A stretch of 64,000 nucleotides of DNA from Planctomycetota bacterium (lineage in GTDB: Bacteria > Planctomycetota > SZUA-567), in the NCBI GenBank assembly GCA_031261425.1, contig JAISJR010000006.1:9701-73700 (forward strand), given 5' to 3'. Both the position numbers and the translations under genes were made by a program. Below are positions 28,291 to 36,107 of the stretch, piece by piece. The notes beneath the pieces are model-generated. The model did no database searches. It saw only the letters and a program-made list of their open reading frames with translations, and was not told where the DNA came from. The first letter of the stretch is position 1. Each line of letters starts with the position of its first letter.

Positions 28291-28446
28291 CAGAGTTGAG
28301 AGTTTAGAGTTCAGAGTTGAGAGTTGAAAGTTTAGAGTTGAAAGTTGAAAAAAAGGATTAGGGGCAAGGGTTAGGGGTTAGAGGCGAAATTGCCCCCCTG
28401 TTCTCTCTCTTAACTCTCAACTCTAAACTCTCAACTCTGAACTCTC
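28291..28446. repeat. R1 heptamer-array palindrome with G-rich variable core
   Basis: Left '(agagttg/agagttt/agagttc)n', right '(caactct/aaactct)n', core 'aggattaggggcaagggttaggggttagagg...cccccc'. Confidence 0.8.
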
Positions 28447-28695
28447 CAATTGGCTCATCATCGCGTCCACGCTCGCGAAAACCGGCTGTTTTCCCGCCGC
28501 GATTTCCTTTCGCAAAGCGTTTATTTCTCCGCCTATGGTGTCGAGATACTTTTTCGGATACACCACGACCGGCATCGCCCAAATAACCCCGTCTTTTTCA
28601 AAAAAATCCAATTTGTCGCCAATGGTCAAACCCAATTTGGCGACAATTTCTTCCGGCAGAGTAATTTGCGATTTCGAGCATAATTCCGCGATCAT
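28423..28695 (-). CDS. AbrB/MazE/SpoVT-type swapped-hairpin DNA-binding protein (small)
   Basis: 'SKSQITLPEEIVAKLGLTIGDKLDFFEKDGVI' AbrB-fold signature; C-terminal ~8 aa and stop are encoded inside the R1 repeat. Confidence 0.55.
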   Translation of the reverse strand: MIAELCSKSQITLPEEIVAKLGLTIGDKLDFFEKDGVIWAMPVVVYPKKYLDTIGGEINALRKEIAAGKQPVFASVDAMMSQLESSELRV

Positions 28696-28748
28696 AATTG
28701 TCTCCTCCCGCCTCTAAACTTTCAACTCTCGACTCTCAACTCTGAACG

Positions 28749-29852
28749 CTAATCCACCACCAAGTCCGCCTGAATCGCGTCGGCGCGTTTGAGTTCGACT
28801 AAAATGTTGATGACGTCCTCGGTGGTGCAACGCATCGCCATCAACGTATCGACCAACGATTGCAACGACCGCCGCCCGCTCCCGCCGGATTCGTTGTGTC
28901 CGAACAAATCAACGAGCGCGCGCGGCGTGTCGTTTTCGAGCGTGTAAGCCGGCGGGCGATTTTCGCCGCCGTCCTGCAACGTAACGGTGCGCCCCTGATA
29001 GGTGATGAAGCCGGGCTGAATCCCGATGTTGCCGGTAATCACCGCCGCGCCGGTCGAGCGGTTGATGCGAATCCGCGCCACCGCTTCAATCGGCACTTCG
29101 CCGTCCAAAATCGCCGCGATGTAATCGACTTTGCGCTTCATATATTGGTCGGGAATCCGCACCAGCACCATTCCGGCGTCAATCGCTTTCGCCACTTTCG
29201 GCGTGTTGTCGGCGCCGTCGCTCGAAAAGCCGGTTTGTTGCTGATAGTTCGGATTGGTTTTCGGGTCTTTGTTGATGTTGTTCTCAATCATCATCGCGTC
29301 CATATAGTTCGGCGATTTCAGCACCAAACGGAAAAAACCGTTTTGGTCCACGACCGTCCGGTTGAGCATTTCGCCGTTCAGCACCTGCCCGCCTTCCTGC
29401 ACGATGCCAATCGTCGGCGTGCCGCCGACCATCACCCGCCCGCTCGCCCACACCAACGCCTGCTCGTCCTCGGAGCGGAATTTTAGCGACGTGCCTTTCA
29501 GCGAGCCGTCGCGAAGATTGCTCGCGTCGCCAATCGAACTGACGCGAATCGGAATCCGGTCGCCGGGGCGGGCGAACGGCTGAATTTCGGCTTCAATCCG
29601 CACGACGGCGATATTTTTCAATTTCAAATCGGTGGTCGAAAAATTGAAATTATTCGCCGCGAAATACTTCTGCAACATAATGCCGGCGTTCTTGGCGCTG
29701 TCGCCGGTGCCGTTCAGTCCGACGACGATGCCGATGCCCTCGACGTGCATCGGGTCGGCGTTGAGCAAGCGGCAGACCTGCCGGATTTTTTGCGCGTTCG
29801 CCGCCGGCGCGACGGCGCACAGCAAGAGCAAGATGATGAGGTAGCGTTTCAT
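28749..29852 (-). CDS. flgI: Flagellar P-ring protein FlgI
   Basis: Signal peptide; 'GIVVGLNGTGD' and full-length FlgI similarity. Confidence 0.9.
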   Translation of the reverse strand: MKRYLIILLLLCAVAPAANAQKIRQVCRLLNADPMHVEGIGIVVGLNGTGDSAKNAGIMLQKYFAANNFNFSTTDLKLKNIAVVRIEAEIQPFARPGDRIPIRVSSIGDASNLRDGSLKGTSLKFRSEDEQALVWASGRVMVGGTPTIGIVQEGGQVLNGEMLNRTVVDQNGFFRLVLKSPNYMDAMMIENNINKDPKTNPNYQQQTGFSSDGADNTPKVAKAIDAGMVLVRIPDQYMKRKVDYIAAILDGEVPIEAVARIRINRSTGAAVITGNIGIQPGFITYQGRTVTLQDGGENRPPAYTLENDTPRALVDLFGHNESGGSGRRSLQSLVDTLMAMRCTTEDVINILVELKRADAIQADLVVD

Positions 29853-29871
29853 CGTGAAATCCTTTTCCATA

Positions 29872-29985
29872 CAGAGTTAAGCGTTGAGAGTTTAGAGTTG
29901 AGCAGAGGTCGCGCTTCGCGCATTATTAAAATAACTCCACTGCTCAACTCTCAACTCTCAACTCTCAACTCTAAACTCTACTCTT
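29872..29985. repeat. R1 heptamer-array palindrome (canonical core)
   Basis: 'agagtttagagttgagcagaggtcgcgcttcgcgcattattaaaataactccactgctcaactctcaactct...'. Confidence 0.85.
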
Positions 29986-34358: not shown

Positions 34359-34691
34359 AACCGCGTTTTGCCACCGCCGTTTTGGAAGCGGAGAAAAACT
34401 TCGGCGCCGGGCTTTTTACCCCGCGCCGGAATAATTTTAACTCGTAATTTTCAGTGTTTTAAGCGTCTATTTTTCACCTCGCCAATCGTCCGCGCCGCCA
34501 ACTCACGCCGAAAACTTTGAGAAAAATTAAATTTCTTGCTTGCGAAAACAGTTGAATGACCTAAATTAGCAATGTCGGCGGTGGAAGCGACGAAAAAGGT
34601 GAAAATGTGATAAAAATGCGTCCCGCGCGGTAAAAACGGTTGACGCGCCAAACTTTGGTCGGATTTCTTTGTTTTTTTTATTTTTTTTTAC

Positions 34692-34704
34692 GGGGGGGGG
34701 GGGG
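34692..34704 (+). promoter_or_regulatory. Homopolymeric G13 tract, preceded by T8-A-T9, 5 nt upstream of the GT4 start codon
   Basis: 'gttttttttatttttttttacgggggggggggggagttATG'. Confidence 0.7.
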
Positions 34705-34708
34705 AGTT

Positions 34709-35893
34709 ATGAGAATCGCGATGTTTTCGTGGGAGTCACTGCACTCAATTTTTATTGGCGGTTTGGGCGTGCACGTTACGGAACTTGCCGCCGGCTTGGA
34801 ACGCCGCGGGCATGAAGTGCATTTGATTACCCGCCGCAAAGCCAACCAAAATCCGTATGACTTGGTTGACGGCGTCCATTATCATCGTATCGACCACGAG
34901 GTTACCGGCGACGATTTTGTGGTGTCGATGGACAAAATGTGCCAATCGATGGCGGCGAAATTTCGCGATATTACCACGTTGGTCGGGCATTTCGATTTGC
35001 TCCACGCGCACGACTGGCTGACCGGCAACGCGATGAAATACTCGATGCAAACGTTCGGCACCAAAGGCATCCTGTCGATGCACTCCACCGAATACGGGCG
35101 CGACGGCAACGTGTTTTATGACGGGTTTGCCCGCGAAGTCCGCGACTGCGAAGCCGAAGCGTGCTTCCACGCCGACCAAATCATCTGCGTCAGTTCGTTC
35201 CTCGCCGAAGAAGTCGAACGCATTTACGCCGTGCCGCACAACAAAATTCACGTGGTGCCGAACGGCGTCAACTATCACGCTTTCGACGGTTTCATCGACC
35301 CCGCCGCCGTCAAAACCGAATACGGCATCGCCCCGATGGCGCCGACGGTTTTCGCCGCCGGTCGGATGAGTTTGCAAAAAGGTATGGATATGTTGGTCGA
35401 AGCCGTGCCGATGGTCTTGGCGAGTTATCCCGAAACGAAATTCGTCATTTCCGGTAGCGGTCCCGAAAAAGACAACGTCGTGCGCATTGCCAATCAAATC
35501 GGCGTCAGCGATTCCGTCATTTTCCTCGACGCGCTTCCGCGTCACAAATACATCGACTTGGTGCGCGCGGTGGACCTCGTCGCGGTGCCGAGCCGCAACG
35601 AACCGTTCGGTATCGTCATTCTGGAAGCGTGGGCGGCGGGCAAACCGGTGGTTACGACGACCGTCGGCGGTCCGCGCGAATTTGTGTGGCACAATGTCAA
35701 CGGTTTCCACGTGGACGCGAATCCGGGCGGCTTGGCGCACGGCATCGGCTCGCTCTTGGCGGACCACGACCACTGCCGCGCTCTCGGTCTGAACGGGCGC
35801 AAAGCGTGCGAAGATATGTTCAACTGGGACAACGTCGCGCAATACACCGAAGGCGTCTATCAATACGTGTTGGACAACAGTTTCGCCTACTAA
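34709..35893 (+). CDS. Glycosyltransferase family 4 (glycogen-synthase-like fold)
   Basis: 'MRIAMFSWESLHSIFIGGLGVHVTELAAGLERRGHEVHLIT' GT4 N-domain; C-terminal 'EPFGIVILEAWAAGKPVV'. Confidence 0.8.
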   Translation: MRIAMFSWESLHSIFIGGLGVHVTELAAGLERRGHEVHLITRRKANQNPYDLVDGVHYHRIDHEVTGDDFVVSMDKMCQSMAAKFRDITTLVGHFDLLHAHDWLTGNAMKYSMQTFGTKGILSMHSTEYGRDGNVFYDGFAREVRDCEAEACFHADQIICVSSFLAEEVERIYAVPHNKIHVVPNGVNYHAFDGFIDPAAVKTEYGIAPMAPTVFAAGRMSLQKGMDMLVEAVPMVLASYPETKFVISGSGPEKDNVVRIANQIGVSDSVIFLDALPRHKYIDLVRAVDLVAVPSRNEPFGIVILEAWAAGKPVVTTTVGGPREFVWHNVNGFHVDANPGGLAHGIGSLLADHDHCRALGLNGRKACEDMFNWDNVAQYTEGVYQYVLDNSFAY

Positions 35894-35957
35894 TCGACTC
35901 GATTTGCGGTCTAAAAATAAAAAATGCCACGCCGTTTTGTTCGGCGTGGCATTTTTT

Positions 35958-36107
35958 TAGAGTTTAGAGTTTAGAGTTGAGCAGTGGTTGCGCTTCGCGC
36001 ATTATTAAAATGACTCCAACTCTCAACTCTCAACTCTCAACTCTCAACTCTCAACTCTCAACTCTCAACTCTCAACTCTCAACTCTCAACTCTCAACTCT
36101 CAACTCT
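35958..36107. repeat. R1 heptamer-array palindrome with expanded right arm (~13x CAACTCT)
   Basis: 'tagagtttagagtttagagttgagcagtggttgcgcttcgcgcattattaaaatgactccaactctcaactct(caactct)n'. Confidence 0.85.

Follow-up and report, generated by a model that had tools for sequence, protein, structure and literature searches.

What are the heptanucleotide palindromes that lie between the genes of a planctomycete flagellar block, and what accounts for their presence there? The question is raised by 64,000 nucleotides (nt) of DNA from a Planctomycetota bacterium (assembly GCA_031261425.1, contig JAISJR010000006.1, positions 9,701 to 73,700 of the forward strand; this whole stretch is hereafter referred to as the window), where FlgF, FlgG, FlgA, FlgH and FlgI are encoded on the minus strand at 28749–33747, as identified with Pfam, and where arrays of the 7-nt unit AGAGTTN face their own inverse across a short core. 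A reading made from the letters alone (hereafter the sequence-only reading) had named eight such loci, and proposed that they are mRNA processing or stability elements akin to repetitive extragenic palindromes (REPs), or insulators. All eight are present as described, and the AGAGTTN set further proves to be one of at least four families of heptamer arms on a shared core. These element families have multiplied in this genus and fill most intergenic spacers; their arms gain and lose whole 7-nt units, and the occupants of the spacers turn over at ∼93% identity. I propose, with moderate confidence, that they form one non-autonomous superfamily of foldback type, comparable to REPs and to MITEs (miniature inverted-repeat transposable elements), with microsatellite arms that change by slippage, and that its members are co-transcribed, tolerated at gene ends and near-neutral in this genus.

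Architecture and placement of the elements

A doublet of the AGAGTTN unit, AGAGTTNAGAGTT, has 60 matches on the two strands of the window, against 0.00 in 100 dinucleotide-preserving shuffles. Every complete AGAGTTN element (eight copies, labeled R1 in Table 1) has the layout (AGAGTTN)n, core, (N′AACTCT)n, and six further AGAGTTN arrays are partial or halved (the half, partial, chimeric and remnant rows of Table 1). Arms comprise two to three units at minimum and 13 at maximum (36017–36107, with 98% identity between units), close to the range of about 3 to about 13 noted before. The cores are interchangeable, as had been claimed, with three types found: canonical in six copies, G-rich (28340–28400) and (AAGGTAA)n (50120–50170). 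Five of the six canonical copies in the window have a fixed 4+4 units (∼100 nt), and canonical copies in a sister genome are of like size (4+4, 5+4 and 4+5). In the window the AGAGTT arm always comes first, on both strands, with eight forward pairs and no reverse pair.

At least four heptamer arm families are built on one core, namely AGAGTTN (R1), CAATTAA (R2), AATTAAA (R3) and AATTACG (R4), and all of them fit the pattern NNARTTN. Oriented on its centre, the shared core reads GGAGTT, 10–14 AT-rich nt, GCGAAGC (or GCGAAAC), AT-rich nt and AACTCC in 18 of 20 elements; it is roughly 45–60 nt long, and its tip is a GCGC-GAA-GCGC mini-hairpin. The canonical core of the AGAGTTN elements is composed of the left half, GCGAAGC and GCRACCTCTGCTC. 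The oligonucleotide d(GCGAAGC) is a classic DNA mini-hairpin of exceptional stability. GCGAAGC is notable for where it occurs, in the middle of the elements, and not for its frequency, as the motif alone shows no excess in the window (47 against 37 ± 6.5).

The 64 kb hold at least 26 elements, with inverted arms of 21–90 nt, and 41 period-7 arrays. Among the 38 intergenic spacers of at least 20 nt in the window, tallied by hand, about 26 contain heptamer arrays, and these include tandem, convergent and divergent spacers (five of the eight divergent ones). Most spacers are AT-rich, with a GC content of 0.28–0.45 compared to 0.57 for the window, in which the coding GC3 is ∼0.72.

The position of the elements relative to genes is precise. 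All AGAGTTN arrays with a co-oriented gene upstream either contain its stop codon or begin no more than 6 nt past it, as is the case for flgF, flgG and flgI (Table 1), for flgH (6 nt), and for the open reading frames (ORFs) of MiaB, the GT2 protein, the AbrB-like protein, the proteasome-subunit-like protein, and products of 1166 amino acids (aa; its stop codon is 6 nt before the partial element at 42937–43003) and 225 aa. Most elements of the other arm families are placed in the same way. The next start codon is found 7–26 nt past the 3′ arm, often behind an A-rich spacer without a Shine-Dalgarno sequence. The sequence-only reading had located elements between nearly every gene of the flagellar block, which is correct for the flgF–flgG, flgG–flgA and flgH–flgI spacers and for the region after flgI, where a single array without core or inverse arm is present (28716–28745), but not for the flgA–flgH spacer, which is 19 nt long and contains no element. 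It had also described overlaps with the 3′ ends of miaB, of a ‘GT2-MTase’ gene and of an AbrB-like ORF. MiaB (MDR0866997.1) does terminate in an arm of the element at 51525–51627 (..KGERV*), the minus-strand GT2 ORF in the 13-unit arm of that at 35959–36107, and the AbrB/MazE-like ORF (28423–28695, minus strand) within an arm of that at 28292–28445, but only GT2 domains are identified by Pfam in that GT2 ORF. Relatives end in ...LTLxGELxxx, while the window MiaB ends in ...LTLKGERV* and a sister protein in ...LTLQGQLTIDN*, with the last two tails encoded by the arrays in place of the native end (GELxxx).

AGAGTT followed by G, T or A gives TGA, TAG or TAA, and since 7 is not a multiple of 3, three AGAGTTN units give stops in every frame. 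This stop-bearing arm is encountered first on both strands, and no frame is closed by the 3′ arm, CAACTCT. ORF calls extend into stop-free 3′ arms at 30773–31963 (minus strand), 29870 (minus strand), 46450–47115 (minus strand) and 51550 (plus strand), and the apparent starts of flgA, flgI, the methyltransferase gene and one further gene thus fall inside elements. In sister annotations FlgA (364 aa), FlgI (368 aa) and the methyltransferase (261 aa) start downstream of the element, and annotation pipelines will probably misplace starts and stops near these repeats. A small ORF running from an ATG of the core through the stop-free 3′ arm into flgA was judged coincidental, because the sister FlgA is annotated to start past the element.

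Fold prediction strongly supports the hairpins that the sequence-only reading had expected in transcripts (z −5 to −10). As RNA, either strand of the canonical AGAGTTN elements reaches −39 to −57 kcal/mol (z −5.1 to −9.1, with none of 200 shuffles as good), and as DNA −28 to −35 kcal/mol (z −6.3 to −10.1). The predicted stem is 30–45 bp long and made of 6-bp blocks, often parted by a 1×1 mismatch at the N position; in this genus N and N′ pair between arms at a frequency of 0.30, against 0.37 by chance, in the inner-to-outer register. The sense strand folds more stably in four of five cases, a trend among cases that are not independent, and GCGAAGC is on the sense strand in 13 of 18 co-directional elements, which are likewise not independent, the bias not being significant.

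With Rfam 15, no family reached the gathering threshold in the window save one tRNA, and an E-value scan of 28200–36200 returned only sub-threshold chance matches to miRNA-like hairpins. A sigma-70 promoter scan did not flag the AGAGTTN arms. Periodic weak matches of the form TTAACA-17-nACAAT in the CAATTAA arm upstream of flgF were taken as a coincidence with the consensus, since 3 × 7 + 2 = 23 mimics promoter spacing. There is no G3 tract in AGAGTTN, CAATTAA, AATTAAA or AATTACG, and GGGG runs are confined to the core at 28353–28377, where telomere-like heptamers (GGGTTAG/TTAGGGG units) are found within the element at 28292–28445. CCCTAAA/TTTAGGG units are also seen in or beside arrays on two Bacteroidales contigs (L052, L099).

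Table 1. Heptamer elements and an adjoining terminator in the window. Arms are R1, AGAGTTN; R2, CAATTAA/TTAATTG; R3, AATTAAA/TTTAATT-type; R4, AATTACG/CGTAATT. L114, L115 and L123 are sister-genome loci.
Feature	Coordinates	Strand	Description
R1	28292–28445		8 × AGAGTTN, G-rich/C-rich core with TTAGGGG-like units, 5 × N′AACTCT
Canonical R1	29873–29979		5+4 units; flgH–flgI spacer; RNA fold −57.1 kcal/mol, z −8.2
Canonical R1	31889–31988		4+4 units; flgG–flgA spacer; flgG stop TAG inside first unit
Canonical R1	32814–32913		4+4 units; flgF–flgG spacer; begins 3 nt past flgF stop
R1	35959–36107		One arm of 3 units, opposite arm of 13 identical AGAGTTG units
R1	50073–50214		7+5 units; (AAGGTAA)n core; divergent spacer upstream of miaB
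Canonical R1	51525–51627		4+4 units; occupies entire miaB–methyltransferase spacer
Canonical R1	57885–57984		4+4 units; core orientation opposite
Half array	20601–20621	+	3 AGAGTTN units; provides stop codon of proteasome-subunit-like gene (20036–20602)
Half array	27325–27366	+	6 AGAGTTN-type units beside AATTAAA-armed element
Half array	28716–28745	−	4–5 AGAGTTN-type units, mRNA sense; 5 nt past flgI stop
Partial R1	42937–43003	+	Left arm of 5 units and right core half (GCGAAGC..AAACTCC), then nested unrelated palindromic repeat
Chimeric element	47056–47184		AGAGTTN-type left arm, shared core, ATTGTTA (R2) right arm
Degenerate AGAGTT remnant	59714–59735	+	Kept as remnant in L123
R2	4198–4309		Shared core; divergent spacer adjoining tRNA gene
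R2	33774–33896		Divergent spacer upstream of flgF; ortholog in L114/L115
R2, partial	52418–52500	+	Left arm and core, broken by another MITE (TTAAATTCCCCTC.. ends)
R2	53761–53884		Convergent genes; perfect 33-bp stem; upstream ORF terminates in arm
R2	58599–58738		Between convergent genes
R3	26097–26212		Full symmetric core GGAGTTTGATTTTCAAATT-GCGCGAAACG-AATTTGAGAATCAAACTCC
R3	27390–27504		
R3	44655–44756		Arm abutted by stop codon of SPFH gene (44757–45686, minus strand)
Half R3	46375–46449		Half core and one arm
R4	2530–2817		Core split by nested MITE of ∼170 nt; GCGAAGC centres at 2561 and 2765
Mixed	6747–7035		AATTACG arm 6747–6775, TTAATTT arm 7015–7035; encloses ∼240-nt repeat with inverted 9/10-mer arrays
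Shared core with CAACTGT/CCACTGY-unit arm	13140–13233		Arm 13189–13233
Bidirectional intrinsic terminator, not part of element	35919–35957		A-tract, 16-bp GC-rich stem, T-tract; directly adjoins R1 35959–36107

Turnover in sister genomes and recurrence across phyla

The arrays are not confined to the window. Four assemblies of the ‘Planctomycetales bacterium MS499’ type (BNUQ01, BOAH01, BOAI01 and BOAJ01), ∼91–93% identical to the window in syntenic DNA, bear the same repeat families, and two of the four are 98.8% identical to each other; L114, L115 and L123 label the sister-genome loci used to compare spacers, and L125 is a short-read contig from a related sample. In the flgG–flgA spacer, L114 and L115 have an orthologous AGAGTTN element which differs by point changes only, and the substitutions in its arms are uncompensated. 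At other loci the number of units differs: the GT2 gene end has 13 in the window against 5–6 in orthologs (∼93% identical), the element upstream of miaB has 7 against 4 (the L123 ortholog being 4+4), and the half array after flgI has 4–5 against 2. Between the two 98.8%-identical genomes there are indels of exactly 7 and 21 nt, and the CAATTAA element upstream of flgF shows a 21-nt arm difference between L114 and L115. The suspicion, voiced in the sequence-only reading, that copy number in the arms is hypervariable is therefore well founded.

Whole occupants are exchanged as well. At three spacers (flgF–flgG, flgH–flgI and miaB–methyltransferase) the arms are AGAGTTN in the window and CAATTAA in sisters, the CAATTAA-armed element being found in L114/L115 for flgF–flgG, and in L123 and L125 for miaB–methyltransferase. 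The spacer at 57886, which contains an AGAGTTN element in the window, is occupied by an unrelated MITE in L123, and the L123 ortholog of the element at 58599–58738 has a nested insertion of ∼390 nt. At the flgA stop codon, where the window has one native unit (GC-AATTAA), L114 and L115 have 4–5 tandem CAATTNA units, without core or inverse arm. In relatives with 63–68% FlgI identity, the flg genes are 1–39 nt apart and the number of period-7 arrays is 0, 1 and 0 in 21, 4.7 and 13 kb respectively, compared to a density of 0.64–1.0 per kb in the window and L114/L115. This near-absence in relatives points to a recent proliferation, at about the level of the genus, and to fast turnover.

The design, as opposed to the core, is far more widespread. 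I scanned one genome per species for the pattern AGAGTTNAGAGTT, 21–51 nt, AACTCTNAACTCT, with AGAGTTN as the only unit scanned, and obtained at least 110 forward stretches in at least 15 phyla, among them Bacteroidota, Acidobacteriota, Verrucomicrobiota, Planctomycetota, Nitrospirota, Chloroflexota, Bacillota, Gemmatimonadota, Armatimonadota, Actinomycetota, Cyanobacteriota and Pseudomonadota. Cores are unrelated between taxa, and among the matches listed only the MS499 genome has the core of this window. In Anaerolineae AQU-02 and Pyrinomonadaceae SMAG_U3511 many loci have constant arms and differing short loops. For the matches listed, 104 of 218 element-strands have an open frame of at least 100 codons that terminates at the 5′ arm or within it, compared to 7.8% of random same-locus controls, and the N position is G in 227 units, A in 112, T in 85 and C in 66 (of 490), so that C, the only base giving no stop codon, is also the rarest. 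In these same matches from other phyla, N and N′ are complementary at 0.55, against 0.32 expected.

AGAGTTN is not established as special among heptamers, as more than 20 others are found in the same design at loci that were chosen only for an AGAGTTN element. In these other inverted arrays, stop-containing frames are more numerous in the 5′ arm of 21 elements and in the 3′ arm of six, and the 5′ arm is richer in G than in C in 24 against nine. A collection of viral sequences gave two matches only, too few for controls. On a phage-like contig, two copies separate tail-sheath-like from tail-tube-like genes, each with the order stop codon, array, hairpin, Shine-Dalgarno sequence and start codon. 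The reverse polarity was found in 52 stretches (∼35 distinct) of the entire metagenome collection, mostly on GC-rich soil contigs, which rules out a universal rule; AGAGTT-first polarity is common, not universal. As a cause of the recurrence across phyla, I considered the likeness of AGAGTTTGAT and GGAGTTTGAT to the universal 5′ end of 16S rRNA, and set it aside, because a 10-mer with at most one mismatch is expected ∼4 times per 64 kb and this rRNA segment is base-paired in the ribosome.

Weighing the explanations

The proposal of a near-neutral, foldback-type superfamily would account for the life of these elements as follows. Replication slippage would add and remove units. Elements preceded by a stop codon, and followed either by the next start or by a separate terminator, would be transcribed with the flanking genes, and the transcript would fold to a 30–45 bp stem broken by 1×1 mismatches. 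They would be tolerated because three AGAGTT(G/T/A) units can stop all frames entering the palindrome on either strand, such that an element reaching the last codons of a gene would merely trim the C-terminus. Effects on expression, whether a barrier to exonucleases at 3′ ends, an RNase III site or the uncoupling of cistrons, would be a by-product, and not the reason for the existence of the elements. Near-neutrality is suggested by the uncompensated substitutions in arms, the chance level of N/N′ pairing, the nesting of repeats, the chimeric arms and the presence in all classes of spacer, the elements adjoining unrelated housekeeping genes whether tandem, convergent or divergent. The uncompensated decay, the N/N′ pairing at chance and the copies in divergent spacers do not favor the mRNA processing, stability or insulator role that the sequence-only reading had put forward, and a fast-turnover repeat family fits the evidence at least as well.

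Several observations weigh against this proposal. No transposase bounded by arrays was identified by Pfam in the 64-kb window, where the only candidates are an XerC/D-like integrase (53888–54778) and one partial PD-(D/E)XK ‘transposase’. The flanks of the eight complete AGAGTTN copies have no common direct repeat that would mark a target-site duplication, although one hidden within the periodic arms could escape such a comparison. The constant arms and variable loops of Anaerolineae AQU-02 are the reverse of what young MITEs should show, and the N/N′ complementarity in other phyla is above expectation. The boundaries of the miaB swap are equal within ∼3 nt, the left half-core is homologous and in the same orientation, and the native stop codon and spacer are lost in both genomes; simple independent insertion would explain the swap poorly. 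Elements also occupy spacers that are otherwise trimmed to 7–26 nt, and could be retained there by selection. Finally, two Prevotella species (L028 2767–2837 and L100 4327–4397) have an orthologous AGAGTTA-armed element with identical arms while the flanking coding sequence is ∼10% different, which may reflect constraint or homogenisation outside the planctomycete genus.

The strongest competitor, which I regard as possible if rather unlikely, is that the elements are host-selected punctuation of operons. Hairpins between cistrons or in 3′ untranslated regions (UTRs) would block 3′-to-5′ exonucleases or feed RNase III, and so set the stabilities of individual cistrons, as do the REP between malE and malF and the RNase III sites between the T7 early genes; the stop-rich leading arm would release ribosomes before the stem, and let it fold. 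The exact placement, past a stop codon and ahead of the following ribosome-binding site or start, is what such a role would predict, as are the very stable predicted stems, more so on the sense strand, and the order of features on the phage-like contig. The bias of stop frames toward the 5′ arm in other heptamers, the above-chance pairing of arms in other phyla, the orientation of GCGAAGC toward the sense strand (although not significant) and the average of 28 nt that separates Xanthomonas heptamers from the upstream ORF (PMC4692102) point the same way. However, the variable positions of the two arms show no co-variation in this genus, substitutions in orthologous arms go uncompensated, and most divergent spacers, which are on the promoter side, bear elements. 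Relatives with the same flg operon have none, the elements are not tied to any gene function and match no Rfam family, arrangements with the stop-free arm first exist in soil metagenomes, and the Xanthomonas unit GGGAATC has no stop codon.

It is less probable, and in my view doubtful, that the elements are microsatellites which mirror themselves without transposition. In this scenario a heptamer at or beside a stop codon slips, a nearby hairpin causes template switching (quasi-palindrome correction) which copies the arm across, and cores are spread or swapped by recombination. Such a process is possible in any bacterium, and would thus explain the recurrence across phyla. It would also suit the flgA stop codon, with its single native unit in the window and coreless tandem units in L114/L115, though that case is equally readable as a contraction. 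The frequent half arrays, the 13 identical units (which point to recent slippage), the many unrelated heptamers in the same design within the same genomes, the constant arms with differing loops within one genome, and the lack of target-site duplication or transposase in the window are likewise in its favor, as are the irregular units exactly mirrored in both arms in other phyla (e.g., L043), where N/N′ complementarity is high. In this genus, by contrast, arms are not mirrored at N positions and arm families are discrete, with no continuum, and the ∼45-nt core and fixed 4+4 size shared by canonical copies at unrelated loci imply copying of whole elements, not local growth.

A broader version of these two ideas is equally doubtful: head-to-head heptamer arrays around a small hairpin might be an unnamed general class in bacteria, built in place by slippage together with hairpin mirroring, or by dedicated repeat addition, and not by transposition, and used as cistron punctuation through three-frame stops with a hairpin behind them. 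The G-rich strand would then usually face inward, and the swaps between arm families at fixed boundaries, of which three spacers here are examples, would be events of active re-templating.

I consider it very unlikely that the elements act as DNA sites, with heptad arrays binding a protein cooperatively (in the manner of omega-type ribbon-helix-helix repressors, which recognise converging heptads, or of a nucleoid-associated protein), or extruding cruciforms which would arrange supercoiling like the gyrase/IHF sites of BIME/REP sequences. Units with six fixed positions and one free, in converging arrays, would be consistent with this, as would the NNARTTN pattern common to all four arm families, the predicted stability of the DNA hairpins, the AT-richness of the elements in a 57% GC genome, and their presence in all spacer classes including promoter regions. 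However, the arrays are not linked to any candidate binding protein, each of the four unit sequences would demand a specificity of its own, units decay and their number drifts freely, the arms of the chimeric element do not match, and the tight abutment on stop codons is left unexplained. Lastly, intrinsic (Rho-independent) terminators or attenuators are hardly credible even though the elements are long hairpins right after stop codons, and I rule out a terminator identity, as no T-tract is found 3′ of the element stems, a scan of 27200–36300 lists none of them while it lists a canonical terminator alongside one (Table 1), and elements are present inside the co-directional flagellar operon and in divergent spacers. 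The order at the end of the GT2 gene is therefore stop codon (in the arm), AGAGTTN hairpin and separate terminator.

If the elements are selfish, they exemplify with unusual clarity a foldback-type repeat in bacteria, with microsatellite inverted ends and several arm ‘alleles’ per core, that has become the main spacer content in one genus. If they are mRNA punctuation, they bear on the long-standing question of how output is made to differ among the cistrons of an operon where Shine-Dalgarno sequences are little used. They also have practical consequences, in that they break short-read assemblies, shift annotated gene ends and starts, and offer hypervariable loci for typing.

Neighbouring repeats and known systems

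Other repeat families are nested in the heptamer elements or adjoin them. A second family consists of palindromes of ∼140–190 nt whose ends are CTCTATTCAATTGCCACGCC...GGCGTGGCAATTGAATAGAG and which contain GGGCTAAAGCCC hairpins (20627–20800, 34172–34362 and 44478–44618); it is also found in a sister genome (L086), and L114/L115 lack the copy at 34172–34362 in their orthologous spacer. A third, MITE-like family of ∼170 nt has ends TTAA(A)TTCCCCTCTACGGAGGGG...CCCCTCCATAGAGGGGAATTTAA (2590–2762 and 52500–52700 in the window, 16727–16922 in L123). Both window copies directly adjoin a heptamer element's GCGAAGC core, possibly a favored target of this family, and in L123 the family fills a spacer that holds an AGAGTTN element in the window. 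A repeat of ∼240 nt with ends ACTCACGTTACGCG...CGCGTAACATCAGT has three copies (6790–7010, 12900–13150 and 54830–55060), each bearing inverted 9/10-mer arrays (TTAACACGAA ... TTCGTGTAA), so that the inverted-array design extends past period 7. A nested GC-rich palindromic repeat (CCGACAGCCGCCCTGTAAGGGCG...), with 51-nt arms that are 86% complementary, is located at 42997–43272 and 529–748, and is common to sisters (L077, L123).

Further features of the region concern genes and assemblies. Synteny with the sisters ends right after flgI, at the AbrB/MazE-like antitoxin gene, which stands alone at 28423–28695 and is bracketed by AGAGTTN arrays; pairs of toxin-antitoxin type among the repeats are a nucleotidyltransferase with a substrate-binding partner, and a PIN protein with a small upstream ORF (37516–38246 and 45719–46347). 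The partial PD-(D/E)XK ‘transposase’ ORF (PDDEXK_2, E 5.7e-16) spans 63216–64000 on the plus strand, is cut by the end of the window, and has no adjoining arrays. A non-coding segment of ∼120 nt (GAGATATACGGCGGCGCGTTTTGCTTCTTTAATTAAAAATCGGGACCACG...) is duplicated at 21985–22115 and 23835–23960, upstream of two minus-strand genes without Pfam match (20867–21718 and 22866–23789), and looks like a duplicated promoter or leader. A small plus-strand ORF at 25795–26013, in an otherwise non-coding spacer of 600 nt, is rich in AAKAPAKK, has a 30-nt period (TRF score 143), and is histone H1-like or HU-tail-like. Logan contigs with an exact or near-identical FlgI are 1.2–1.5 kb long, and those with an exact FlgI or MiaB 1.2–3 kb; L001, L116, L125 and L126 break at or near repeats, L001 (1.5 kb) ending just before elements on both sides and L125 beginning within one.

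A literature search by literal sequence (AGAGTTGAGAGTT and similar) returned irrelevant eukaryotic matches only, and did not find AGAGTTN arrays; one by the accessions of the sister genomes gave no match. Among known repeats, the bacterial MITEs (Correia/NEMIS of Neisseria, ERIC/IRU, RUP and BOX) are intergenic sequences of 100–150 nt with terminal inverted repeats, which are co-transcribed in operons, form hairpins in mRNA that in some cases are RNase III substrates, and vary in presence between strains. Their inverted repeats are of unique sequence, they have target-site duplications (e.g., TA), and their parent insertion sequences are known or inferred. The elements described here are similarly small, AT-rich, non-coding, multicopy and inverted at their ends, but these ends are tandem arrays and no duplication is seen. 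Bacterial MITEs are reviewed in PMC3184786.

Like the REP, BIME and REPIN sequences of proteobacteria, which are co-transcribed and have been proposed to act as mRNA stabilisers and supercoiling sites, they are abundant extragenic palindromes found in 3′ UTRs and between cistrons, and are non-autonomous (PMC3116915, PMC3333891, PMC3733652). REPs, however, are GC-rich imperfect palindromes of 20–40 bp with a GTAG/CGTC head, mobilised by RAYT (TnpA-REP), whereas the present elements are ∼100 nt long and AT-rich, consist of tandem heptamers starting with AGAGTT or CAATTA, and lack the GTAG/CGTC head, and no RAYT (Y1 transposase) domain is present among the scanned proteins of the 64-kb window. 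In architecture they resemble the foldback (FB) transposons of Drosophila and their eukaryotic kin such as Galileo, which have inverted ends made of tandem repeats, arms of variable length and a variable or absent middle, and whose copies promote rearrangements (PMC4168063). The likeness is architectural only, as FB and Galileo are eukaryotic, kilobase-scale, built of 10–31 bp units, and have known transposases.

The closest parallels for the arms themselves are heptamer repeats. In Xanthomonas campestris and X. axonopodis, GGGAATC heptamers, most commonly of four units and with function given as unknown, are 89–93% intergenic, with the short mean distance to the upstream ORF cited above, and form 70–75 convergent pairs of opposite-strand arrays per genome that are capable of stem-loop formation (Rehm et al., 2015, PMC4692102). 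Tandem intergenic 7-nt units, convergent pairs, proximity to the upstream ORF and a length that varies between species are thus shared with the elements of this genus. Unlike AGAGTTN, the Xanthomonas unit is G-rich, lacks a stop codon and was investigated for its formation of G-quadruplexes; its host belongs to the gammaproteobacteria, neither a shared core nor several arm families on one core were described, and divergent spacers rarely carry the repeats (7–8%) compared to five of eight here. Cyanobacterial heptamers, which go by the name STRR, are a further case. Heptanucleotide repeats of Calothrix are cited in the same Xanthomonas study (PMC4692102).

TAACTGA direct heptamers of marine Beggiatoaceae, cyanobacteria and some Bacteroidetes give stops in three frames, and are located a few nt before start codons that often have no Shine-Dalgarno sequence (MacGregor, 2015, PMC4679880). 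They share with the present arrays the intergenic tandem heptamers, the patchy phylogeny, the three-frame stops and the 7-nt indels between strains, but they are nearly all direct (one inverted case in 170 sets), and have neither a core hairpin nor a palindromic architecture. The combination of a modular core, several arm families per core, arm swaps at fixed positions and spread across phyla appears to be undescribed. Heptanucleotide repeats are the commonest class of long simple-sequence repeat in many bacteria, according to the summary of Mrazek et al. (2007) in PMC4679880. Together with the convergent pairs of Xanthomonas, the occurrence of the AGAGTTN design in many phyla suggests that the long-noted surplus of such repeats in bacteria is in part palindromic in nature.

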